NCBI GenBank assembly: GCA_031547085.1
Contig: JAVBSH010000128.1
Location: forward strand, 39,632-103,631
Reading direction: 5' to 3'
Source: Bacteroidales bacterium
GTDB lineage: Bacteria; Bacteroidota; Bacteroidia; Bacteroidales; UBA4181
DNA length: 64,000 bases
Under the pieces are notes generated by a model, which did no database searches, was not told the origin of the DNA, and saw only the letters and a list, made by a program, of their open reading frames with translations. Below are positions 1,918-60,179 of the stretch, in pieces. Position numbers and translations under genes: made by a program. Each line of letters starts with the position of its first letter. The stretch's first letter is position 1.

Positions 1918-4329
1918 ATGAATAGATTATCCATATTTAGTTTCCTGATCATCTTCCTAACCGCATGCCAATCCGGTAAGGAGCAGAATCCCAACCTGTC
2001 GCTTTGGTACCAGCAGCCGGCCGACGAGTGGATGAAAGCCACGCCCATTGGTAACGGACGCCTTGGTGCAATGGTACATGGTGGTATTGCCATGGAAAAA
2101 CTGGCGTTGAACGAGGTTACCATGTGGTCGGGACAACCGGATCCGGATCAGCAAACGAGAACCGATGGAAAGCAAAGGCTGGCTGCCGTTCGGAAACTTT
2201 TTTTTGAAGGAAAGTATGAAGAAGGCAGCCAGATGGCGGCACATGACCTTATTGTCGGTTCGCGCTCATTCGGAACGCACGTCCCCACTGGAGATCTAAC
2301 ACTCCGTTTCGGCCACAACGAAGCTGCCGCTACCGGTTACAAACGCGAATTAAACCTGCGCGATGCCATCACAAGAGTCTCGTACCAGGTGGACGGTGTC
2401 ACGTATCGGCGGGAATATTTCTGTTCAAATCCTGACAATATATTGGTGATCAGGCTATCATCGGACAAAAAAGGACAATTGGACTTCGATCTTGGATTGA
2501 CAATGATGCGTAAATCAGACAGCACTGTTTTCGCAGTAAACAACAACAGCCTAGAATTTTCCGGTAAGGTCTGTTTTCCGAAATTCGGGCCGGGAGGGGT
2601 CAAATTCGCCGGTAAAGTTGAAGTAGCGGCCTTGGGCGGGATCATTCAGGCAAGCGATACCATATTGAAGGTAAACGGGGCTGATGAAGTAATAATTATG
2701 CTTGATATCCGTACCGATTACGACAACCCGGAATACCGATCCGTATGTCGGGCAACAGTCGAAAAGGCTATTGCTAAAGGATTCGAATCAGTGAAAAAAG
2801 ACCATGTTGCCGACTACAAAGAGCTGTTTGATAGGGTAGACATCTCATTGGGGAGTAGCGAAGCGGACAAGAAACCAACCGACGTGCGTTGGAAAGCCAA
2901 AAAGGAAGGAGCAACAGATCCCGGACTCGATGCTCTTTTCTTCCAGTATGGACGTTACCTGTTGATTGCCTCCTCACGCGAAAACTCGCCGTTGCCATCG
3001 AATCTGCAAGGCATCTGGAACGACAATCTGGCATGCAACATGGGTTGGGCATGCGACTACCATCTGGATATCAATATCGAACAAAACTATTGGCCATCGA
3101 ACATCACCAACCTGCACGAATGCAATGCGCCGCTGTTTCGCTACATCAAGTTTTTGTCCGAACATGGCGCCCAAATGACACAAGATATATTCGGAAACCC
3201 CGGTTGGTCGGCAAATACAATTGTCAATTCATGGGGATACACAGCTCCTGCAAGCACATATTGGGGATTATTTCCTACAGCCGGAGCTTGGATTGCCTCG
3301 CACCTGTGGACACATTACGAATACACAAACGACAAGGATTTCCTGGAAAAGACAGCTTATCCCATCCTGAAAAGTGCCGCCACATTTTTCCTCGACTATA
3401 TGACGGAACTTCCCGGTACGGATTACATGGTTACCGGCCCAAGTATCTCGCCCGAAAACTCGTTCCGTTACAACGGTGCTGAGTTCACACTGTCCATGAT
3501 GCCCACCTGCGATCGTGTATTGGTATTTGAAACCTATATGTCGTGCATCCGAGCATCCGAAATATTAGGTATGGATATAGATTTCCGCCAATCGCTGGAA
3601 GAAGCGCTAAAGAGATTCCCGCCTTTCAGAATCGGGAAAAACGGCACTTTGCAGGAATGGCTCGAGGACTTTGAGGAGACCCAACCCAACCATCGCCACA
3701 CCACACACCTGCTGGCATTGTACCCGTTTTCGCAGATTTCGCTGGCTCATACGCCTGAATTAGCTGCCGCAGCGCGAAAAACCATCGAGAGACGACTGAA
3801 TGCTCCTGGTTGGGAAGACGTGGAATGGAGCCGCGCCAATATGATCAACTTTTATGCCCGCCTCAAAGACCCGCAGGAAGCTTACAACAGCTATGCCGGA
3901 CTGCTCAACACCTTCACCCGCGAGAACCTACTCACCATCTCACCCAAGGGAATTGCAGGTGCGCCGTGGGATATCTTCATCATCGACGGCAACGGAGCCG
4001 GGACATCCGGCATGGCCGAAATGTTGATACAAAATCACGAAGGCTACATCGAATTTTTGCCGGCACTTCCGGAACAATGGAAGACAGGATATTTTAAAGG
4101 CCTTTGCGTGAAAGGCAGTGCCGAAACAGATGCCGAATGGACGGATGGGAAAATAACCCAGATGACAGTTAGGGCAACAACGGATGGAACTTTTGCAGTA
4201 AAGTTACCGCGGAATGACTGTCCTGCAAAAATATCCCTTAACGGGAAAAACCAGGAGTCAACCATCCAGAACGGAGATAGGATCACCTTAACAATGAAGA
4301 AAGGTGATATCTGGAAGGTAAGGTATTAA
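1918..4329 (+). CDS. GH95 family glycoside hydrolase (alpha-L-fucosidase type)
   Basis: I chose the ATG at 1918 (MNRLSIFSFLIIFLTAC, lipoprotein signal) rather than the track start 1801, which overlaps the GH29 3' end. GH95-like motifs: LWYQQPADEWMKATPIGNGRLGAMVHG, NEVTMWSG, NLQGIWND, DYHLDINIEQNYW. Confidence 0.85.
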   Translation: MNRLSIFSFLIIFLTACQSGKEQNPNLSLWYQQPADEWMKATPIGNGRLGAMVHGGIAMEKLALNEVTMWSGQPDPDQQTRTDGKQRLAAVRKLFFEGKYEEGSQMAAHDLIVGSRSFGTHVPTGDLTLRFGHNEAAATGYKRELNLRDAITRVSYQVDGVTYRREYFCSNPDNILVIRLSSDKKGQLDFDLGLTMMRKSDSTVFAVNNNSLEFSGKVCFPKFGPGGVKFAGKVEVAALGGIIQASDTILKVNGADEVIIMLDIRTDYDNPEYRSVCRATVEKAIAKGFESVKKDHVADYKELFDRVDISLGSSEADKKPTDVRWKAKKEGATDPGLDALFFQYGRYLLIASSRENSPLPSNLQGIWNDNLACNMGWACDYHLDINIEQNYWPSNITNLHECNAPLFRYIKFLSEHGAQMTQDIFGNPGWSANTIVNSWGYTAPASTYWGLFPTAGAWIASHLWTHYEYTNDKDFLEKTAYPILKSAATFFLDYMTELPGTDYMVTGPSISPENSFRYNGAEFTLSMMPTCDRVLVFETYMSCIRASEILGMDIDFRQSLEEALKRFPPFRIGKNGTLQEWLEDFEETQPNHRHTTHLLALYPFSQISLAHTPELAAAARKTIERRLNAPGWEDVEWSRANMINFYARLKDPQEAYNSYAGLLNTFTRENLLTISPKGIAGAPWDIFIIDGNGAGTSGMAEMLIQNHEGYIEFLPALPEQWKTGYFKGLCVKGSAETDAEWTDGKITQMTVRATTDGTFAVKLPRNDCPAKISLNGKNQESTIQNGDRITLTMKKGDIWKVRY

Positions 4330-21208: not shown

Positions 21209-21736
21209 TTATTGGATGGAATTGGCTTCCTGAAACTTATTGCCAACTTCTTCCAATTGTTGGAATGCATCGGATATCTTGCCGAATTGTTGCAACGATT
21301 GATTGCCTTCCTGCACTTTCTCGAAAGCTGCCATGCTGTTCCTCGCCTTTTGCATGGAAGCGGCCAGTTGTTGCAGTTTACCTTCGGCCGACTCCATGGC
21401 TGCGGTTTCATCGTAGATGCGATGGCCGTCCACATAATAGGCATATTGGTCTTGACGGAGCGTTTTGGGCAATCCCACCAGGAACAGGATGGCAATACAT
21501 GCAGCAACACCTGTGATGATCGCCCAATTCAACCGAATGGTACGTGTTATCGTCTTTGGGGCAGCCGGTTCCACTGTCCGCTCCCCGGCAAAGAATACGA
21601 ATATAGGCTGGTATGCTTTCAGTGAATCAGGCACGTCCTTTCCTGCAAAGAAACGCTGTAATTCGCGTTCTTCGTCCAACGACGTTGCTCCGTCGAAATA
21701 GCGTTGGAGCAACTCATGTATTTTTTGTTCGTTCAT
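21209..21736 (-). CDS. Putative anti-sigma factor / single-pass membrane protein
   Basis: It overlaps the sigma gene stop by 4 nt. The N-terminal cytoplasmic helix is MNEQKIHELLQRYFDGATSLDEERELQRFFAG, there is one central TM (WAIITGVAACIAILFLVGL), and the C-terminal part is a periplasmic coiled-coil. No zinc-finger anti-sigma motif is present, so the assignment is by position only. Confidence 0.5.
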   Translation of the reverse strand: MNEQKIHELLQRYFDGATSLDEERELQRFFAGKDVPDSLKAYQPIFVFFAGERTVEPAAPKTITRTIRLNWAIITGVAACIAILFLVGLPKTLRQDQYAYYVDGHRIYDETAAMESAEGKLQQLAASMQKARNSMAAFEKVQEGNQSLQQFGKISDAFQQLEEVGNKFQEANSIQ

Positions 21737-22233
21737 ACCTTCATTTGTTTTAAAAGTTCTTCACGTATCTTTTGCCGGGCACGCGACAGGTTGGTTCGCA
21801 CGGCTCCGTCGTTCATTCCGAGTATCTCGCCGATTTCTTCCAACTCATACCCTTCCACATCTCGCAAACGGATCACCATCTGTTGCTGTTCGGGCAGGCG
21901 TTCGATCAAACGCCTCACAAATGCGGCCATATCGGCTTGTTCAACACTCTTGTATGGCGTTTGCTCATGTTGCGTATGGAGGGTTTCGGTCAATTCGGCT
22001 GTTCTGCTGTGCGGCGACCTGACATAATCGAGGCACCGGTTACGCACAGCGCTCATCGCATAAGCTTCCACACTACGCAGGGCATCCAGCTCATTGTGTC
22101 GTTCCCACAATTTTACACCAACTTCCTGGACTACATCTTCGGCCTCGTCCGTTCGCTTGGTATAAGCCAAGGCAAAGCGATACAGCTTCGGGCGCAGATG
22201 TGCCATTAATTGATTAAATCCGGTTTTGTCCAT
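21733..22233 (-). CDS. ECF (sigma-70 family, group 4) RNA polymerase sigma factor
   Basis: 166 aa. Region 2 is EDVVQEVGVKLWE and region 4 HTH is QQQMVIRLRDVEGYELEEIGEILGMNDGAVRTNLSRARQKI. Confidence 0.9.
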   Translation of the reverse strand: MDKTGFNQLMAHLRPKLYRFALAYTKRTDEAEDVVQEVGVKLWERHNELDALRSVEAYAMSAVRNRCLDYVRSPHSRTAELTETLHTQHEQTPYKSVEQADMAAFVRRLIERLPEQQQMVIRLRDVEGYELEEIGEILGMNDGAVRTNLSRARQKIREELLKQMKV

Positions 22234-22318: not shown

Positions 22319-22739
22319 ACGATCATGATATTTTTCTTTTGAAATATGCATTGAGATGAAATAATTTTACAAATCAGACTGTACAACAGATACTTAAATG
22401 GATCATCTTTTTCCCATACACGACGACGTCATATTAAGTGTCCACCCTTTTTAAGGACAAAAAACCTAAATGACGTAACTGACCTATTGTTTTCAAACTT
22501 AGCGTAAGCGAGCTCGCCGAAAGGCAAACCTGACAGGTCTTTGCTACGAATAAAATCCATCAGGTCTTTGAAAATTAATAAGTTGCGATATAGTTCATTG
22601 TGACCAAGTAAACGGGGGTACGAGTTTACGCGCGGAGACAGCTTTAGGTATCAAAAACGATATTCATATATTGACCTCAAATATTGCCCCAATCTAGGAG
22701 CATTTTCTGACAGTATGTCAGAACTCGTACCCATTCCTG

Positions 22740-22982
22740 CCCCTTCAATTTTTTGAAGCCCGGAGATTGCCATCAAATTTCACCATCAATTTTTTGAAGA
22801 CGAAAGAATGGGTACCTTTTTCCACCATCAACGGACGTTTTGTCAGATAATGCGGACGTGCTACCACCTTCATTTTTTTGATAGTGGAAGATTGCCATCA
22901 GATCCCACTGTCAATTTTTTGAAGCCGGAAACTGCCCCCATTCTGCTACCATCAATTTATTGACGACGAAAGAGTGCCTACC
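22740..22982. repeat. Degenerate tandem array, 6 units of 41-42 bp, each starting C(A/C)CC(A/T)TCAA-T-rich-TTGA(A/C)G
   Basis: The TCAA anchor recurs at 22745, 22786, 22828, 22870 (as TCAT), 22911 and 22952, giving spacings of 41, 42, 42, 41 and 41. Units 1/5, 2/6 and the second halves of 1/4 are most alike. The array abuts the TGA stop (22983-22985) of the dipeptidase gene. Confidence 0.7.
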
Positions 22983-23807
22983 TCAGATCTTATCAATCAA
23001 CTTATAACGTTGTTTTGCTTCGCTCAGCGAGCAGGCGTTGAAATGCCACCATTCCCCGCTGATGCTGCGAAAACCGGCTTGCCACATCACTTGACGAAGG
23101 AGTTGCCTGTTCCGTACCTGATGAACATTCAGCAATCCCTGATCGATTAATTCCTGTTCGTTGAGCGTACCTGCTGCCTTACCAAAATAATCGAATGGAG
23201 TTCCCATATCCAAAGGCTGCAACAAACTGTCGGCCAAGGTCAGGTCTACGGCAGCCCCATAGTTATGAAGGCCGGTCTGGCCGGGTTGCGCCACATAACG
23301 GTGATACTTTGTATCCTTCACCGCATCCCATAAAGCTTGCTGCACAGTCAAGGGACGCATTGCGTCGTACACCAGTAACCGCAAGCCGGGATTCGATTTT
23401 CTCAGAAGCTGTTGCGCTTCGGCCAACATCATAGCCACATCATGCTGTAAATAAGCGCCGTCAATATCTTCATAAAGTACTCTCCCTGTAAAATTATCAG
23501 TCGTTGCATATTTTAACAATATGCCGATGGTACTGTCGATATCATGTATATTTACCAAACGCAAGCTATCTATGATACGGCGTATCCGCGGTTCCGGTGA
23601 ATGTATGAGGCAAGTAGCAGAATCAGGCTTATCCGGTTGTTCGGGAATATGATCAACCTCAGGGCTTACTATTTCCTGTGTCGGACTTATCTTTACCAAA
23701 ACAAGTAACACACATACAATAGAAATGCACAGTATTGCAACTAAATATTTTGTTTTCAATCTATTATAATACAATTGCCGATGTAAAGTTAGTTTATTTA
23801 TATACAA
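22983..23807 (-). CDS. M15 family D-alanyl-D-alanine dipeptidase (VanX/DdpX-like), membrane-anchored
   Basis: N-terminal TM (YLVAILCISIVCVLLVLV). LLVYDAMRPLTVQQALW, GLHNYGAAVDLTL, MGTPFDYFG and GEWWHFN match the VanX-type M15D motif order. Confidence 0.8.
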   Translation of the reverse strand: MYINKLTLHRQLYYNRLKTKYLVAILCISIVCVLLVLVKISPTQEIVSPEVDHIPEQPDKPDSATCLIHSPEPRIRRIIDSLRLVNIHDIDSTIGILLKYATTDNFTGRVLYEDIDGAYLQHDVAMMLAEAQQLLRKSNPGLRLLVYDAMRPLTVQQALWDAVKDTKYHRYVAQPGQTGLHNYGAAVDLTLADSLLQPLDMGTPFDYFGKAAGTLNEQELIDQGLLNVHQVRNRQLLRQVMWQAGFRSISGEWWHFNACSLSEAKQRYKLIDKI

Positions 23808-46230: not shown

Positions 46231-46299
46231 TTACGAGTTACAAAGTTACAAGTTACGAGTCCGCGTAACTTGTAACTTGTAACTTGTAACTTGTAACTC
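46231..46299. repeat. Palindromic heptamer array (AAGTTAC x3 / GTAACTT x5)
   Basis: GAGTTAC-A-AAGTTAC-AAGTTAC-GAGTCCGC-GTAACTT x4-GTAACTC. AGTTACAAGTTACG (46244-46257) pairs perfectly with CGTAACTTGTAACT (46264-46277). It lies between the stop of 45838..46227 and the ATG of the cyclase gene. Confidence 0.85.
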
Positions 46300-46307
46300 A
46301 ATTTCAA

Positions 46308-47411
46308 ATGAAACTTGTTTTTTTGACACTCTGCTTGTGTGTTTCCCTGTTTACCACCTGTTCGTCGTGCAACCGGAGTAATAGGGAGTCGAAATCGAAA
46401 AATACGACGGAACAGCAACGCCCGCGTCAACAGAGGGCACGGATTGCCATTTCGTCGCCAAGAAATAATGAAAAGCAGGCACTGGGCTCCGCCATTATTT
46501 TGTCTGTCCAAGTAAAAGATACTTCCGACCCCATAGATTCGCTCCGCTGGTTCATTGGCGGCAGATGGTTGAAAACGACCAAGGGTGGGGATGTTACTTG
46601 GAACACATCGGGGCAAACTACGGGTACACACCGTATTGAGGCTGTGGCATATTATGTTTCGGGACAGCATGACATGGTGTCGACAAGTGTCGTTTTGTTG
46701 GCTGACAAGGCGCCTAAACAATACACATATAAAGTGGTGCAGACCTATCCGCACGACAGGAAAGCCTATACCCAGGGATTGGTTTTCGATAATGGTTTCC
46801 TGTACGAAAGTACTGGCCTGAAAGGCGAATCATCGCTACGTAAGGTCAATATCCAGACAGGCGAACCTATTCAAGTGACCAATATGCCGGGCGATATGTT
46901 TGGTGAAGGGCTGGCATTGGTGGATAATAAATTGATCCAATTAACTTGGCAAAATCAGGTGGCCTTTATATACCGGAAAGATGATTTCAAGGTGCTGGAT
47001 AAGATCAATTACTCGATGCGCGAAGGCTGGGGATTGGTTTTCGATGGCACGCACCTGCTGATGACCGACGGCTCGGCAACCCTTTATTCCCTGGATAAGG
47101 AATATCTCACGGAAGTACGCCGGTTGGAAGTGTGCGACAACAAAGGATTGGTGAGGGAATTGAACGAGTTGGAATATATCAACGGGGAGTTGTGGGCCAA
47201 TGTTTACCAAACAGACGACATCCTGCGCATCGATCCGGCCACAGGTGTTGTACTGGGATGTATCAATATGGAGGGATTGCTGAAACAAAGCGACAGGGAT
47301 AACGATACCAATGTGCTGAATGGCATTGCCTATGACGAGAAAACAGGAAAGATATATGTTACAGGGAAAAACTGGCCGAAACTGTTCGAAATACAGGTGG
47401 TAGAGAAGTAA
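46308..47411 (+). CDS. Glutaminyl-peptide cyclotransferase (beta-propeller, plant/bacterial type) lipoprotein with N-terminal extra domain
   Basis: Lipobox MKLVFLTLCLCVSLFTTC. YKVVQTYPHDRKAYTQGLVFDNGFLYESTGLKGESSLRKVNIQTGE and the following propeller repeats match type I glutamine cyclotransferase. About 130 aa of an extra Ig-like region precede it. Confidence 0.85.
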   Translation: MKLVFLTLCLCVSLFTTCSSCNRSNRESKSKNTTEQQRPRQQRARIAISSPRNNEKQALGSAIILSVQVKDTSDPIDSLRWFIGGRWLKTTKGGDVTWNTSGQTTGTHRIEAVAYYVSGQHDMVSTSVVLLADKAPKQYTYKVVQTYPHDRKAYTQGLVFDNGFLYESTGLKGESSLRKVNIQTGEPIQVTNMPGDMFGEGLALVDNKLIQLTWQNQVAFIYRKDDFKVLDKINYSMREGWGLVFDGTHLLMTDGSATLYSLDKEYLTEVRRLEVCDNKGLVRELNELEYINGELWANVYQTDDILRIDPATGVVLGCINMEGLLKQSDRDNDTNVLNGIAYDEKTGKIYVTGKNWPKLFEIQVVEK

Positions 47412-47439
47412 AAGTTACGAGTGACAGGTTACAAGTTAC
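47412..47439 (+). repeat. Heptamer array (4 x 7 nt) starting at the first base after the cyclase stop
   Basis: TAA then AAGTTAC GAGTGAC AGGTTAC AAGTTAC. Confidence 0.75.
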
Positions 47440-47449
47440 ACAACGGCAA

Positions 47450-54474: not shown

Positions 54475-56601
54475 TTACGGCATTCTGGCCAAACCTTCCC
54501 AGTGTACATCCCAATTACCGTCCTTCGGAAAACCGGGAGTGTCGGTTTCGCAACCGTCCCAACCGGCGCACATCATCGCCACGGTGGTAAGCAAGCCGCC
54601 GTTGCCGGGAAGGTAGATACGCAGGCGGGCATCCTGGTAATTATGTCCGTTCACTAAATAGGTATTGGTCCGTTTGTCCATCAGCAGAGCGCCAACCGCT
54701 TTTTCGGGTTCGCCGAGTCGGGCCGCACTCATGGCAGTCATCGGGTAATCCCAACCCCATGTGTGGTCCCAGTTCCAACGATCCCATATCCAATGGAGCG
54801 TATTTTGCATTACTTCGGCACGCATCAGCCTGCTTTGCGGGAAGATGCCCAGGGCACCCAGTACGGCCGGGTGGTCGGATGTGAAACGTACATCGCTGTA
54901 CGTTTCCGGGGCTGTTTCGGCAGCCAGGTACAAACCGTCCTTTTCGGCCAACGGAGACAGTTTATTGATCACCTCATCCCATTGCGGATTCCGATTCTGC
55001 CCGGTACGTTCGCGCCATTGCTGCGCCACTCCCAACGCATAATGCCAGTATGAAAGTTCGAATGGAGGGTTGGTTGTTTCAGCTGGGCGTAATGTTTCCT
55101 GCGCCGGGATGATACCTTTCAGTACATAACGGTCGCCTTGTTCGTCATACGTGGCAAATGAAGCCATAAACCCGGCTGTTTCATCTACCAGTCGTTTGTA
55201 TTTGTTAAGTACTTCCGGTGTGGGATTGTTACGGTAGATAAGTTCGGCCATGTAGATAAAATGCGGTTGCTGCCAGATGAGGAACGAACCAACGCCTGAA
55301 GGCGCTTCCAATGCCGACGGGTCAGTCATCTTCATCCATCGTATACCCTTAAAGCCTTGCCTTTCGGCGATGGATTTGGCGATGGGATAGGCCGTGTTGT
55401 ACCAGTCCATGCTGCGTTCGAGCAGGTCGGTGCGGTTCCATAGCGCAAAATGAACAGCATGCCACCAATGCATTTCCAGGTGGAACTTGCCAAACCAACT
55501 GTTGTAGGTGAGCCCTGTTTCCTGTGGAGGCATCGATCCGGCACACTGTATGGCCATGAGGTATTGCGACAATACCACGCGGCGTTCCAATTCAGAGGCT
55601 TCCTTTGCCTTGCAAGCCGAGAAATCAATTGCCCCGCCCCGTTGCCAGAAGCTTTGCCAATACGCGGACGATGCCACTAATGCATGATTGAATGAAGGGA
55701 GCGGATCGGAAGTCGGTTTCTCTGTAAAGAAACAAACCACGGAAAAATCATCGCTTTCGGGCGAGAGTACAAAGTGATGTTTTGCCTTTTCGGCGATTGT
55801 GGCTTTACCTGTCCAATTCACGGTTACATGATACGTTGTATTGTCTAATTGTCGTTCGAAGGTGATACCCTGTTCCGTCCGGTTCACGATTGTGGAGGAA
55901 TGTTTTTCGGGGTTGTCCCAATCGCAGGCATCATCGGTATGTTTGCCGGTGGGGTAGGGGAAGCGAAAATTCAGTTTCAGGCGGCCGTCCTTGATTAATG
56001 CCGATCTGATGTGTGCTGCCATGGCGTCTTTCTGCGGATGGCAGACTGTTTGTACATCCACGGAAATGTTATCCAATTCGAAATGACTTTCTATCGTGCC
56101 GTCCCATAATTTTAGTTCCTGCCGGATGCTTTTCAACTCATCGGCATTCACCTTGCTGCCATCGGTATGCGTCAGTTCCAGGCCGATGATGCCAAGGTGC
56201 AGGCGGTGCGGATTAGCACGGTACCAGTCAGCAGCCTCCTTCGGTCGTCCGGGTTCATTGAACTGCACTGCATAAGGCTCTTCCCACCCACGGAAGTTGT
56301 AATTTTTCAGGGTTTCCTCGAATTCGTAGTTCTCCGGGTTGGTGAATTTATGCCATCCCCATTGCGACTGGGTACCTAACGGAACTCCTGCGCTGTATAA
56401 CTCGGGAAATGTCTGCAATCCCGTAGCATCCACCGTATAGGCAAATTCGCCGTTGCCTACCGATAGCGACGATAATTCATCAAATTGGTTTATTACCGGG
56501 CTGTTCCGGTTAACCAGCGCCTGGCGGTCTATTTTTACAGGTTCTTTTGTGTTACAAGCAGCAAAGAGAACCAGTGCGCTACAATAAAGCCATTGTTTCA
56601 T
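54475..56601 (-). CDS. Putative glycoside hydrolase lipoprotein ((alpha/alpha)6-like), family not assigned
   Basis: Lipobox MKQWLYCSALVLFAAC. 708 aa. Trp/His-rich helical repeats (FGKFHLEMHWWHAVHFALWN, YWHYALGVAQQW) resemble six-hairpin glycosidases. Its context is pectin/RG genes. Family membership cannot be settled by eye. Confidence 0.45.
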   Translation of the reverse strand: MKQWLYCSALVLFAACNTKEPVKIDRQALVNRNSPVINQFDELSSLSVGNGEFAYTVDATGLQTFPELYSAGVPLGTQSQWGWHKFTNPENYEFEETLKNYNFRGWEEPYAVQFNEPGRPKEAADWYRANPHRLHLGIIGLELTHTDGSKVNADELKSIRQELKLWDGTIESHFELDNISVDVQTVCHPQKDAMAAHIRSALIKDGRLKLNFRFPYPTGKHTDDACDWDNPEKHSSTIVNRTEQGITFERQLDNTTYHVTVNWTGKATIAEKAKHHFVLSPESDDFSVVCFFTEKPTSDPLPSFNHALVASSAYWQSFWQRGGAIDFSACKAKEASELERRVVLSQYLMAIQCAGSMPPQETGLTYNSWFGKFHLEMHWWHAVHFALWNRTDLLERSMDWYNTAYPIAKSIAERQGFKGIRWMKMTDPSALEAPSGVGSFLIWQQPHFIYMAELIYRNNPTPEVLNKYKRLVDETAGFMASFATYDEQGDRYVLKGIIPAQETLRPAETTNPPFELSYWHYALGVAQQWRERTGQNRNPQWDEVINKLSPLAEKDGLYLAAETAPETYSDVRFTSDHPAVLGALGIFPQSRLMRAEVMQNTLHWIWDRWNWDHTWGWDYPMTAMSAARLGEPEKAVGALLMDKRTNTYLVNGHNYQDARLRIYLPGNGGLLTTVAMMCAGWDGCETDTPGFPKDGNWDVHWEGLARMP

Positions 56602-56814
56602 TGAGTCTATTTTGATATGAAGTATTAGGTTGACTTATACAGGTGTGAAAGTGGTTTTTTAGCTGGTATAGCCGGATAGGCTCTTGCTTTCTACCATGTA
56701 AAGCAGGAGCCTTACTTTTATACTTTACGCGGGCAAGTTTTACCTCCGTCGAGATCGGTTACTCACTATCGTTCGTGAAATCGCTAGCGCTAAGTTTGCT
56801 AAGTTGTGCACGTT

Positions 56815-56849
56815 GAGGCTGTTCAAAAACAGACTTTTTGAACAGCCTC
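56815..56849. other. Perfect 15-bp inverted repeat (5-nt loop)
   Basis: GAGGCTGTTCAAAAA-CAGAC-TTTTTGAACAGCCTC, 75 nt downstream of the stop of 56925..57653. No flanking U-tract on either strand. Confidence 0.7.
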
Positions 56850-56924
56850 GTCAAACCGACATCATATCGTTGACACGACATTAGTACGAGTATGTGCATG
56901 GAGACATCTCTTTGTACCCGGATG

Positions 56925-57653
56925 TTATTCTTTTGGTTCGTCTTTTTTTGCACCTCCTTTGCGTTGCGCCAAAAGGGTGCTGTAATCCTTGATGATGGCA
57001 TTGAGATCGGTTACCACTGTGTCGAACCGGTTGTCCTTATAACGGTCGATATCGGCATTGATGGCGTCCTTAATGGAGGTAAAAGCGGGATCGACTTTTA
57101 AACGGACGACTTTTACATTGCCCGACGGACGATTAGTTTTATCGTCGCGGCAAAGTTTGTCAACTTCTGCAAACCGTTGATTGGCGCTCAGCAACTTGTC
57201 TAACCGTCCTTGCGCTCCAATCTGGTCAATATCGGCCTGGTAGGGTTTCAATTCGTTTCCTAACTGTATGATCATGGATGTTTCGGCCTGGTCAGCCAAC
57301 TTCCAAGGGTTACCCACTTGCCGGATGATGCGCATGACACGTTTTGCAGCTTCAAAATCGGCAGCTTCCTCTTCATCGAAAAGGAATGATTTCACATAAT
57401 GGTAAAGTTGGCTGTGCATCCGGTCGCGATAATAATCGGCCGCATCCCTTTGTGCGGTTATAGAGCTACCTAACTCCACCGACAATGCTGTTTCCTCCTC
57501 CTGCATCAGCTGTGCCAGGTCATCATACAATGCACGGATGTTCAGGTTGTCAGGGTCATGTTTCAGGAGCGCTTCCAGTATGAGCCTGATAAATTGCATA
57601 TGTTCCTTGTTCCGCAGGTTGTGAGGCGAGAATTTTACGATTTTAGTTTTCAT
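56925..57653 (-). CDS. Hypothetical all-helical protein (possibly DUF6261-like, low confidence)
   Basis: 242 aa with no signal peptide. The N-terminus KFSPHNLRNKEHMQFIRLILEAL recalls the RLRNxEHxQF start of a Bacteroidetes DUF family. This is from memory only. Confidence 0.45.
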   Translation of the reverse strand: MKTKIVKFSPHNLRNKEHMQFIRLILEALLKHDPDNLNIRALYDDLAQLMQEEETALSVELGSSITAQRDAADYYRDRMHSQLYHYVKSFLFDEEEAADFEAAKRVMRIIRQVGNPWKLADQAETSMIIQLGNELKPYQADIDQIGAQGRLDKLLSANQRFAEVDKLCRDDKTNRPSGNVKVVRLKVDPAFTSIKDAINADIDRYKDNRFDTVVTDLNAIIKDYSTLLAQRKGGAKKDEPKE

Positions 57654-57756
57654 TTATTGTGTTTTTAAAGGTTAAATAATGCATAAAGATAATTTATTTT
57701 TACAAATGTTGTATGGATGATAGATTTTTGTTCAATATTTTTTTTGGGATGATAGC

Positions 57757-57966
57757 AAAACCATGACGACAGTACCTTCCGGACTTACGGAGCACACTAA
57801 AACAATGACAACTATACCCTCCGGATATGCGGAACATACTAAAACTACGACGACCTTACCCTCCGGATTTACGGAGCATCCCAAAACCACGGCGACGATA
57901 CTCTCCGGACTTGCGGAGTATATTAAAACCGCGACAATATATCCTCCGCAGTTGCGGACGGCGTTT
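57757..57966. repeat. Tandem array, 5 units of exactly 42 bp, each with an invariant TCCG-N6-CGGA inverted repeat
   Basis: Units start at 57757, 57799, 57841, 57883 and 57925 (AAAAC[CAT]..G.C.A.....C.TCCGNNNNNNCGGA......). The array overlaps the track ORF 57763..57993 (76 aa, 14-aa repeats T-T-x-P-S-G-x-x-E-H-x-K-T). Confidence 0.85.
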
Positions 57967-58009
57967 TATGCATGTTTTTACTCTATGATGTAATCTCGGT
58001 CACTTAATC

Positions 58010-58043
58010 AACCCTGTCAGCAGCTTTGCAACCTAACAGGGTT
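58010..58043. other. Hairpin (8-bp stem, 18-nt loop) after the 42-bp array
   Basis: AACCCTGT (58010-58017) / ACAGGGTT (58036-58043). Confidence 0.4.
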
Positions 58044-58110
58044 AGGCAAAATTCTAAACGACATTTCCTGATGAATTGAAAAGATAGAAATGGACAGCGA
58101 TTTTCCTCGA

Positions 58111-58896
58111 TTATTCCAAACCGAGTTTCCTGAAATCTTCTATTTCCTTTTGCATCTTTTCCAACTCTCCGTCTAACTTTTTACTATACTTTTTAAGTGA
58201 TGCTTCTGTAACTTCGGTTCCTTCAAAACAAAGCATATTGTCTAATTCAGTTTCTTCTATAAGTTTGAAAATCTCTTCTTGAGGATTCTCCAACCTGCTA
58301 TTGATAAGTACTAACTCAATCCTGATCCTCCACAGTCTATATAAAAGTTTAGCATGGAGACCAATATGCTGATATGTCTTGAAAGCGGTAGGCATGATGA
58401 AGGCTCCGCATGCATGATACTGTCCTGCTGCGTTTTGAAATGACCCCATTTCGCTTGCATACCCCATAATGATCGGGTAAGCAAAGGTATTCATCACATC
58501 TATCATTCGTTCAATTTCTTCTCTAACCTTTTTTCTGACTTCTTTTTTGTCTTTAATGCCATCTTCAAACAGGGACTTGAAGATCGAAAATAAGGTATCT
58601 GCTTGAGGAGAACCCCATCCTTTGGGTATTGAAAAATCAGGGGATATCTTGTCCCCATGCGCTAAGACATCAATGGCTGATAACGGAGATTTATTCAATT
58701 CAAGCTTAAACCGCTCGATATTTTCAATCGTCATTTTTGCTTTTTCCCACTCGCTCGATTCGATTATTGAACGTCTTGCATAAAAGACCTGTGCCAGGAT
58801 AAAACATAAAGACACCAAAGTGCCGATATAATAAAGATTCGGTAGCCAAACCTTAACCTCACCATACCATTTTTGCTTTTGCTTTTTGTTTTTCAT
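58111..58896 (-). CDS. Hypothetical N-terminally membrane-anchored helical protein, AT-rich gene
   Basis: The ATG at 58896 gives a Lys-rich start MKNKKQKQKWYGEVK plus one TM (LPNLYYIGTLVSLCFILAQVF). The remainder is soluble and helical with a C-terminal coiled coil. No family confidently recognised. Confidence 0.5.
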   Translation of the reverse strand: MKNKKQKQKWYGEVKVWLPNLYYIGTLVSLCFILAQVFYARRSIIESSEWEKAKMTIENIERFKLELNKSPLSAIDVLAHGDKISPDFSIPKGWGSPQADTLFSIFKSLFEDGIKDKKEVRKKVREEIERMIDVMNTFAYPIIMGYASEMGSFQNAAGQYHACGAFIMPTAFKTYQHIGLHAKLLYRLWRIRIELVLINSRLENPQEEIFKLIEETELDNMLCFEGTEVTEASLKKYSKKLDGELEKMQKEIEDFRKLGLE

Positions 58897-59009
58897 AGAA
58901 TGACATATAAGAAATGTCGACAAATATAAAACATAACTTTAATAAAACAGAAGCAACTGTTTTATACTTGCATTTTATACTTTAATCTGATATTTCAGAA
59001 ATTAACCGG

Positions 59010-60179
59010 TCATTTACCCAATTCCAAGCATCCCATGATGAATGGCCCCGTAGCTTTTGTATCGTTATCGCGGATCTTTTCGCTGATGTAATATTCGAAA
59101 CTGCCGTCGCGGTATGGTTTTCCGCCCAAGCCTCCCACCGAGCAGCATTGTGTGAGGTTTAGCGTTCCATCTTCATTTACTTTGATCAATTTGGTGGTGA
59201 GTCCATTGAAAGCTTTTTCGGCCACTTTTCGGTATTTCTTCGGGAGATATCCCTTGTTGACAGCCTTGGCGTATGAATACATGAACATTGACGATGCCGA
59301 TGCTTCCAGATAGTTGCCCTTGCGTGTCCCCTGGTCGATCACCTGATACCAAAGGCCGGTTTTATCCTGGTATTTGGGCAAAACCGAAGCCAGTTTATTG
59401 ATGATGTCGATAACATCCTTGCGATGCGGATGATTTTCGGGCACAAAATCGAGGATGTCGACCATTGCCATGAAATACCAGCCAATAGCGCGTCCCCAAA
59501 AGTTGGGCGATTGCCCGGTGGTTTTGTTTGCCCACTGTTGTTGGCGGCTTTCATCGTATGCATGGTATAATAGGCCTGTTTTTGGGTCGACCGTATGTTT
59601 GTAGGTAACCAATACCTCATGAATTGCCTTGTCTATTAAATCGGGACGATGATACAATTTGCCGTATTGCGCCATATAAGGCCCGGCCATATAAATGCCA
59701 TCCAACCAAATCTGGTGCGGATATATTTTCTTGTGCCAGAACACGCTGTCGGTCGTCTGCGGATGTTTGTCCAACTGGCTCAGCAGGGTATCCATGGTTA
59801 TCCGGAATTTCTGTTGCCCGGAGTAGTCGTAAATTTCAAACAGTATCTTTCCTGCATTGATGAAATCGATGTTGTAATCGGTGGTTTTGTAATGAAGGAT
59901 AGAGCCATCGGGTTGTACCATGTGGTCGGCCCAACGGAATACATAATCATAATATTTGTTGTCGCCTGTATCATGCCATATTTTGAGCAGGGCGCAACAT
60001 CCCAATCCTTGTGGATAACTCCATACATAGCGTGTGCCATAGTCGAGTTGCCATGCTTCCGGAAACCGTTTCATCTCCGAATCGGCAAAACGCACCGACC
60101 ATTTGTCGTTTTTGGATTGCGAAAAACCTGTTTGAAGAAATAGAACGAAACAACAAAAAAGGATACCTGCTTTTTTCAT
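59010..60179 (-). CDS. GH88/GH105 family unsaturated glycuronyl (rhamnogalacturonyl) hydrolase
   Basis: Signal ...TGFS|QS. WSYPQGLGCCALLKIW, WLDGIYMAGPYMAQYG and FWGRAIGWYFMA match the YteR/UGL (alpha/alpha)6 fold. The PL11 neighbour favours GH105. Confidence 0.8.
   Translation of the reverse strand: MKKAGILFCCFVLFLQTGFSQSKNDKWSVRFADSEMKRFPEAWQLDYGTRYVWSYPQGLGCCALLKIWHDTGDNKYYDYVFRWADHMVQPDGSILHYKTTDYNIDFINAGKILFEIYDYSGQQKFRITMDTLLSQLDKHPQTTDSVFWHKKIYPHQIWLDGIYMAGPYMAQYGKLYHRPDLIDKAIHEVLVTYKHTVDPKTGLLYHAYDESRQQQWANKTTGQSPNFWGRAIGWYFMAMVDILDFVPENHPHRKDVIDIINKLASVLPKYQDKTGLWYQVIDQGTRKGNYLEASASSMFMYSYAKAVNKGYLPKKYRKVAEKAFNGLTTKLIKVNEDGTLNLTQCCSVGGLGGKPYRDGSFEYYISEKIRDNDTKATGPFIMGCLELGK

Follow-up and report, generated by a model that had tools for sequence, protein, structure and literature searches.

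A palindromic 41/42-bp repeat array accompanies DUF6261 genes in Bacteroidota

What does a strictly periodic tandem repeat do between two genes of a Bacteroidales genome, and does it encode anything? The question is raised by a five-unit, 42-bp array in a 64,000-nucleotide stretch of contig JAVBSH010000128.1 (Bacteroidales bacterium, GenBank assembly GCA_031547085.1), the whole of which is called the window here. The original prediction, made from the letters alone, offered two readings: an array of hairpins, or a micro-protein built on a 14-amino-acid (aa) repeat. Judged from comparison with related arrays, the array is non-coding, and it stands directly in front of a gene of the DUF6261 family. 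That array and gene make up a conserved two-part module, of which the array is the non-coding part linked to the gene, is well supported, and since such an array lies in front of every DUF6261 gene examined, the array and the protein probably work together.

The array and its partner gene

The features that carry the argument are listed below in window coordinates; P1 denotes the palindrome of each unit, with copies 1 to 4 read from the sequence.

57757-57966, functional orientation taken as minus (the gene-sense, GGTTTT-bearing strand): tandem array of five 42-bp units, period 42, no indels
57757, 57799, 57841, 57883 and 57925, plus: unit starts, AAAAC(C)
57777-57792: P1 copy 1, T-TCCG-GACTTA-CGGA-G
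57819-57834: P1 copy 2, C-TCCG-GATATG-CGGA-A
57861-57876: P1 copy 3, C-TCCG-GATTTA-CGGA-G
57903-57918: P1 copy 4, C-TCCG-GACTTG-CGGA-G
57945-57958: P1 copy 5, TCCGCA-GT-TGCGGA, 1 nt earlier within its unit than copies 1-4
56925-57653, minus: DUF6261 gene, 242 aa (Pfam PF19775, E = 3.6e-18), start codon at 57653

The five units had been described as an exact array in 42-bp register. The register is borne out by Tandem Repeats Finder (57757-57948, period 42, 4.6 copies, 74% matches, 0% indels), by the start-to-start spacings of direct repeats within the array (42, 42 and 42) and by a sliding scan of the whole 64 kb, in which self-similarity at lag 42 peaks at 0.69 at the array against a 99.9th percentile of 0.39. 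"Exact" thus holds for the period and not for the copies, which are about 74% alike. A degenerate unit pattern has four matches in the window, where shuffles lead one to expect 0.01, and the AAAAC start and the TCCG-N6-CGGA core, both reported as invariant, are indeed present in five of five units. The units are contiguous and homologous over their full length, unlike the identical repeats and unique spacers of a CRISPR. A short contig in Logan carries an identical copy of the window locus.

The array had been placed 3' of a minus-strand gene. This is correct for the open reading frame (ORF) at 58111-58923, but the relation that matters had been overlooked: on its other side, 104-313 nt downstream on the same (minus) strand, begins the DUF6261 gene.

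Relatives of this gene were collected in several rounds. A word-indexed protein search returned only eight, 48-100% identical to the window protein, and their contigs were fetched; the same search started from the protein of locus L007 returned that protein alone. Scanning a genome collection with the single window protein gave no match, and with an eight-sequence alignment it gave one locus, L007. A first metagenome scan was likewise without a match, and one seeded with a six-sequence alignment of a second clade (about 28% identity to the window protein) yielded 27 loci. The comparison set comprises 30 loci, each with 200 nt or more of sequence upstream: the window, L002-L005, L007, L008, L011 and 22 metagenome loci.

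At all 30, the strongest self-similarity upstream of the DUF6261 start is at lag 41 or 42 (84 in L007, a two-unit period). In the second clade, the top local self-similarity lag is 41, 42 or the two-unit 84 at 22 of the 22 loci with at least 200 nt upstream. The proteins of the array-bearing loci are 28-100% identical to the window protein, and array size ranges across the family from 3 to 7 units of 41 or 42 bp. Examples are L004 (56% identity; 42 bp, 3.2 copies), L008 (50%; 42 bp, 6.2 copies), L005 (48%; 41 bp, 5.5 copies), L007 (34%, from a metagenome-assembled Bacteroidales genome; period 42/84) and L011 (41 bp, at least 6.4 copies, the contig stopping within the array). L002 (80%) and L003 (71%) are paralogues in one assembly whose 42-bp arrays have diverged; both escaped Tandem Repeats Finder and are clear in register layout and autocorrelation.

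This periodicity belongs to one position. In 125 kb of sequence from 32 loci, every segment with a period of 41, 42, 82, 83 or 84 abuts a DUF6261 start codon, and the other repeats in the same sequence have periods of 22, 30, 51, 63, 69 and 95. No protein-coding neighbour is conserved beside DUF6261 among the loci compared, which leaves the array as the sole conserved neighbour. An alignment of four orthologous intergenic regions shows the array to be conserved unit by unit, and the leader and spacer on its two sides only poorly. Several short contigs end inside the array or just before it (L006, L010, L011, L013); the repeats probably break short-read assemblies, and such arrays are likely to be under-represented in databases.

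The module is apparently undescribed. Rfam gives no match at E <= 1 in 56500-59200 and none at the gathering score in 20 related loci, and searches of the literature on DUF6261, PF19775 and 42-bp Bacteroides repeats turned up nothing relevant.

The protein half is a large family known in databases only as "DUF6261 family protein" or "hypothetical protein"; an exhaustive HMM search (E <= 0.001) finds 2,637 representatives at 50% identity. Limibacterium fermenti, a candidate cultured carrier, has the DUF6261 protein WP_418894669.1. AlphaFold2 models the window protein as eight helices (pLDDT 96.5, pTM 0.80, from a 127-sequence alignment), where an earlier model from a shallow alignment had reached a pTM of 0.52 and no fold match. 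With Foldseek neither the PDB (best E = 0.33, TM <= 0.3) nor BFVD yields a relative, a sequence search against PDB chains gives nothing significant, and PHROGs and NCBIfam have no match. Two candidate identities were set aside: a weak PADLOC match to JetA (E = 2.7e-4), regarded as coiled-coil noise, and a tyrosine recombinase, rejected for want of a fold match. The residues N15, D73, R76, A103, N158, R184 and N218 are almost invariant. Collections of plasmid, phage and viral sequences hold no homologues. For this family without an assigned function, the array provides a testable non-coding partner with a strict 41/42-nt period.

Palindromes and the reading frame over them

What is conserved within the units is a palindrome. 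P1 often reads TCCG-N5/6-CGGA, in both clades (window, L003, L019/L021, L030, L031, L033/L036, L038), and in arrays of this type a period of 41 goes with N5 and a period of 42 with N6. The consensus stem is at least 5 bp long in most arrays, and Watson-Crick pairs occupy 585 of the 730 stem positions counted. The outer TC...GA is fixed and the inner pairs change jointly, giving TCCG/CGGA, TCCC/GGGA, TTCG/CGAA, TCAT/ATGA, TCGT/ACGA, TCAG/CTGA and TCAC/GTGA; in orthologous units an A-T pair of L015 and L019 is replaced by C-G in L023. By this covariation, the self-complementarity of the unit is under selection, and the part of the original prediction that saw a hairpin array has held up: the palindrome is the conserved core of the unit. 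In the window, units 4 and 5 at the gene-distal end of the array additionally share a 20-nt inverted repeat with 80% complementarity (57904-57923 / 57939-57958).

Most units carry a second element, a T-run motif containing GTTTT. In the window it reads GGTTTT(A/G)G; the form AGTTTTAGT is found in the window, L005 and L010, and in the second clade (C)GCAGTTTTGC is the best-conserved block. In several arrays the T-run motif is a mini-palindrome in its own right, and its centre is about half a period (19.5-21 bp) away from P1.

The competing proposal concerned one further feature:

57763-57993, plus: 76-aa ORF over the array, judged not to be a gene

The ORF is present as described, and the tallies that accompanied it are exact, with 6, 4 and 7 variable sites at codon positions 1, 2 and 3 and a threonine codon column that runs through ACA, ACT, ACC and ACG. 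The suggestion that this split hints mildly at coding does not stand, since 6/4/7 is no different from a uniform distribution (estimated chi-square about 0.8). Neither does the peptide repeat extend over the whole array: in unit 5 the earlier palindrome shifts it out of frame (PSG becomes PPQ). Among 5.8 billion clustered proteins none is homologous to the 76-aa product, and no called gene on record corresponds to it.

The nearest related arrays distinguish hairpin-preserving from peptide-preserving change, keeping the palindrome and losing the peptide. In L003 the peptide PSG..E becomes SAS..D with added stop codons and the palindrome is retained; L002 has a stop codon in the frame matching the 76-aa ORF; and L005 has at least three stops in all six frames. 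Where frames are open over related arrays, their strand and frame vary by locus, as is expected of any stop-free repeated unit.

Public gene calls of 59-159 aa lie over some arrays on either strand, at 1354-1533 in L003, 4483-4962 in L004 and 3131-3328 in L008. These are almost certainly spurious ORFs arising from stop-free units, an annotation pitfall of such arrays.

Flanking signals, orientation and other repeats

The following features adjoin the array or resemble it.

57654-57756, minus: A+T-rich spacer from array to start codon, less structured than shuffles (RNA fold z-score +0.93)
57967-58110, minus: leader upstream of the array, with a hairpin at 58010-58020 / 58033-58043 (AACCCTGTCAG / CTAACAGGGTT)
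58111-58923, minus: 270-aa ORF directly upstream of the array, which lies at its 3' side
22740-22982, plus: second array of 41/42-bp period, some six units with the palindrome CTTCAA-TTTT-TTGAAG; match fraction 0.49 at lag 41

Sixteen of 26 loci have a perfect Bacteroidetes -7 box (TAnnTTTG, often TATATTTG) on the gene-sense strand, 90-314 nt before the array begins. At several of them a TTG stands about 20 nt further upstream, and such distal boxes occur in both classes of array orientation described below. These motifs make it probable that the arrays of the relatives have a promoter on their upstream side. Between array and start codon, a perfect box on the sense strand is found at only four loci (L007, L010, L011, L028), and no perfect antisense promoter was found in the loci with reversed arrays.

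In the window the leader has a 7/8 match to the -7 box on the minus strand (GAATTTTG, about 58051-58058), and so has the spacer (AACATTTG, 57703-57710). The spacer also holds two direct copies of GGATGATAG, 32 bp apart (57715-57723 and 57747-57755), the distal one within a 10-nt perfect complement of the junction of units 3 and 4 (57742-57751 against 57877-57886). It is a candidate proximal promoter or translation-initiation region, and an A+T-rich, unstructured segment before the start codon recurs in several relatives. Two other promoter types were tried and rejected: the unit as a full promoter, given that CAGTTTTG matches the -7 box at 7/8 but has no -33 element at the right distance and the 42-bp spacing is unsuitable, and a sigma-54 promoter, of which inspection by eye revealed no motif.

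Hairpins with a CTGTCAGG / CCTGACAG core occur upstream of the arrays in the window (58010-58043), L003 (about 1216-1290) and L005 (about 4040-4135), and the DUF6261 proteins of these three loci share only 48-71% identity. By position and sequence, the CTGTCAGG-type hairpins are candidates for terminators of the upstream genes, or else for a conserved 5' element of an array transcript.

As far as its motifs tell, the array has a polarity of its own, which is not tied to the direction of the gene. Compared with the L019 unit, those of L016-L021 run the same way (z = 3.3-14) and those of L030, L031, L033 and L038 are reversed (z = 3.2-5.5), as are those of L036 more weakly (z = 2.3). Orientation is uniform within subclades and among near-identical contigs (L023/L024, L025/L026, L028/L029, L033/L034, L018/L020/L022), which points to an old inversion rather than to active switching.

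Many arrays carry an inverted copy of the motif at the gene-distal end, which brackets the array with arms of 20-30 nt. Bracket lengths, with paired positions in parentheses, are 30 (29) in L036, 26 (25) in L023, 23 (22) in L017, 21 (20) in L019 and 20 (19) in L015. The window has only a weak bracket: one of 12 nt that encloses part of the array, and another, at 57671-57687 / 57965-57981, whose 17-nt arms are 82% complementary. In L007, alternate units have a 13-nt motif in opposite orientations.

The second array had also been pointed out in the original prediction; it is real, though weaker than the first. It is the only other 41/42 signal in the window and was not detected by Tandem Repeats Finder. 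It lies in a 750-bp gap between the minus-strand genes for a D-Ala-D-Ala dipeptidase (22983-23807) and an ECF sigma factor (21733-22233), and neither a DUF6261 gene nor, by tblastn, a remnant of one is present in its vicinity. Ahead of it on the plus strand stand CCTGACAGG (22529-22537) and a palindrome, TTCTGACAGTATGTCAGAA, which resemble the leaders of the first array, L003 and L005. This second array is possibly an orphan of the same class of element as the main array.

The locus has a chromosomal context among polysaccharide-utilisation-type genes, including GH88. The 270-aa ORF upstream of the array belongs to no Pfam, NCBIfam, PHROGs or PADLOC family and is not conserved beside other DUF6261 loci. 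In the same neighbourhood, a 708-aa ORF (54475-56601, minus) has no Pfam match at E <= 0.01.

Heptamer repeats form a separate observation. They flank a glutamine cyclotransferase gene (46308-47411, plus) at 46231-46298 and 47412-47440: four copies of GTTACAA/GTTACGA, followed immediately by 4.9 copies of the inverted GTAACTT (100% identical), make a long heptad hairpin just before the start, and four copies of AAGTTAC follow just after the stop codon. The same heptamer appears in L015, where three to four copies of GTAACTT/GTAACTC lie after the 42-bp array and before the start codon of DUF6261.

Possible mechanisms and known systems

How might array and protein act together? We tentatively favour a repeat RNA that is the partner of DUF6261 and is transcribed from the strand bearing the GTTTT motif. 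In the window this would be the minus strand, so that the array would be co-directional with the gene and just upstream of it. Each unit would fold into a small hairpin, and the repeat RNA would be a dedicated partner of DUF6261, bound, and possibly cut into unit-length pieces, by the protein. The partnership would control the activity or the level of DUF6261, and the fixed unit length would reflect the geometry of a repeating RNA-protein assembly.

This reading is suggested by the manner in which the palindromes vary. When arrays are oriented by the T-run strand, which in the window is the minus, gene-sense strand, stem mismatches compatible with G-U pairing outnumber A-C mismatches by 40 to 18 (binomial p = 0.005, a value that overstates the strength of the test, as repeat units are not mutually independent). 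By array, ten favour the T-run strand, one the opposite strand and three are tied; orienting the arrays by the gene strand instead leaves no bias (34 against 36). Many complementary types of inner pair and a strand-specific mismatch bias speak for base pairing within one strand.

Apart from the non-independence of the units, several observations weigh against an RNA partner. The folding energy of the arrays is below that of shuffles on both strands, without strand preference. The orientation of the array to the gene is not fixed, one subclade being reversed, and since a sense promoter is predicted upstream of the array in both orientation classes, an RNA partner recognised by sequence would differ between them. 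A period of 41-42 is about four turns of the DNA helix and is stricter than the range of repeat lengths in type III toxin-antitoxin families, so that phasing on DNA fits at least as well. DUF6261 proteins are mildly acidic (median pI 5.8) and, by Foldseek against the PDB and BFVD, have no recognisable RNA-binding or nuclease fold. Among expression signals, the window contains no perfect TAnnTTTG box, only 7/8 matches, and no terminator-like site in 57500-58200 by a promoter and terminator scan that is sigma-70-type and uninformative for Bacteroidota; nor is there a consistent terminator hairpin between array and gene across the relatives.

The strongest rival, a serious one that we rate below the RNA partner but well ahead of the remainder, is a phased array of DNA binding sites. 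Each unit would contain one or two duplex palindromic sites, four helical turns apart and hence on the same face of the helix, to which a dimeric DUF6261 or a host factor would bind cooperatively, repressing, blocking or activating transcription of DUF6261. The period supports this, being 41/42 bp in every array with proteins down to 28% identity, as does the second palindrome at half a period in several arrays. So does the occurrence of GCAGTTTTGC in either orientation relative to the gene and predicted promoter, which duplex recognition tolerates and single-strand recognition does not. Folding potential is equal on both strands, and in L007, L010 and L011, which are relatives from the clade of the window, the perfect -7 box between array and start would put the array in the classical position of an upstream operator.

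A duplex site, however, has to account for at least six complementary types of inner pair, each of which would require the specificity of the protein to switch, where base pairing is the simpler explanation, and it does not predict the bias of 40 to 18 towards G-U-compatible mismatches. In the second clade the predicted promoter is mostly upstream of the array, which would then be transcribed. The acidic DUF6261 is without a known DNA-binding fold, and there are no rep or par genes nearby and no plasmid homologues. As the units of the wobble test are not independent, the RNA partner is ranked first only with the reserve expressed above, and the phased DNA sites second.

An improbable alternative is a purely cis-acting structured 5' leader, in which the hairpins would govern stability, attenuation or translation of the DUF6261 mRNA without a specific protein interaction. 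The distal sense promoter would place the array in a leader of about 400-500 nt, with conserved hairpins and an unstructured A+T-rich segment before the start. Strict unit length and a loop motif conserved in both orientations are unexpected of a simple leader, and Rfam has no match to a ligand-binding or attenuator family.

Less probable again is an invertible or recombining segment, in which recombination between the bracketing copies or the palindromes would flip units and switch the state of the element or the gene. The long brackets of L036, L023, L017, L019 and L015 are of the kind this would need, the two orientation classes are related exactly by a flip of the segment between the outer arms, and the alternating 13-nt motif of L007 is in keeping with it. 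Against it, uniform orientation per subclade and among near-identical contigs makes an ancient event likelier, the window bracket is weak (12 nt; 17 nt at 82%), no recombinase gene is found among conserved neighbours, and the fixed period goes unexplained.

A selfish or neutral minisatellite, or a miniature transposable element of the BrickBuilt type, placed here by chance, is very improbable. The array does consist of intergenic tandem repeats in a Bacteroidota genome, inverted-repeat ends are present in some relatives, and BrickBuilt sets the precedent of a 23-nt minisatellite within an element with promoter activity (PMC4596501). The arrays described here, by contrast, always lie beside one gene family and show unit-by-unit orthology between species, the window unit is found at one locus in 64 kb, and the paralogues L002 and L003 in one assembly have diverged rather than identical arrays.

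The probability left to a micro-protein with a 14-aa repeat, translated from the plus-strand ORF, is negligible: the frame is open across the array and synonymous to non-synonymous changes stand at 20:32 in it against 6-14:33-42 in the other frames (an excess that, with 17 variable sites, is not significant), but the ORF is on the strand opposite to that favoured by the wobble test, and the out-of-frame unit 5, the stops in related arrays and the lack of homologues and gene calls all speak against it.

A broader claim, possible yet more doubtful than the repeat-RNA reading itself, is that DUF6261 and its 41/42-nt hairpin array constitute an unrecognised, widespread two-component system of Bacteroidota, with the repeat RNA as obligate partner (antitoxin, scaffold or guide) of a protein with a new fold. 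Known systems offer several points of comparison.

CRISPR-Cas loci resemble the module in placing a hairpin-bearing repeat array beside a dedicated protein gene, with variable orientation to that gene. TIGR-Tas likewise has a repeat array with a hairpin part beside a protein gene, in variable orientation. The DUF6261 arrays differ from both in having no unique spacers, the variable parts of their units being diverged copies of each other, and in showing no Cas or Nop-like domain by Pfam and Foldseek and no sign of a guide function.

BrickBuilt elements of Porphyromonas gingivalis consist of 23-nt units, with 19 dispersed copies of one sequence per genome and small flanking inverted repeats (PMC4596501). 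The likeness lies in intergenic tandem repeats of Bacteroidota with inverted-repeat flanks and a possible effect on neighbouring transcription. The units described here are 41/42 bp long, locus-specific and always beside DUF6261, unlike BrickBuilt, which has no fixed gene partner.

On the side of DNA, the nearest analogues are sopC of the F plasmid, where SopB binds a short inverted repeat within each 43-bp unit, and plasmid iterons, which follow one another at intervals of about 21-22 bp. Helix-phased direct repeats with a palindrome in each unit, for which binding is at most predicted here, and a position beside the gene of a candidate binding protein are shared features. The DUF6261 array differs in its chromosomal location, away from rep or par genes and without homologues on plasmids, in the protein having no known DNA-binding fold, and in covariation and a strand bias that point to single-strand pairing. 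Should its action be on DNA, the array would represent a new kind of operator or centromere-like array on the chromosome, served by a protein with a new DNA-binding fold.

By analogy, the closest known architecture seems to be that of the type III toxin-antitoxin systems, whose loci consist of a promoter, tandem 31-62-nt repeats in 1.9-5.6 copies, a terminator and a toxin gene (PMC3401426). As in ToxIN, CptIN and TenpIN, short direct repeats immediately precede a single protein gene, in the window on the same strand; the two-part module occurs in varied chromosomal contexts, with a promoter predicted upstream in many members; and the repeats diverge between systems and are alike within an array (PMC3401426). 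Unlike these, the partner is an all-helical, acidic protein of about 245 aa without a fold relative, instead of a ToxN-type endoribonuclease of about 150-170 aa, and Pfam gives DUF6261 only, with no toxin of the ToxN, CptN or TenpN type. A terminator hairpin between repeats and gene is missing from the window, each unit is a simple palindromic hairpin, unit length is far more uniform, and part of the family has the array reversed relative to the gene.

Few RNA-based systems have been described in Bacteroidota. Should the array RNA bind or neutralise the protein, the module would give this phylum a new toxin-antitoxin or defence-like family of the RNA-protein type. An RNA two-component system of this kind, if real, would form a new class beside type III toxin-antitoxin and other array-plus-effector systems, set apart by units that are palindromic and of strictly fixed length, by brackets of inverted repeats and by arrays able to work whichever way they face.

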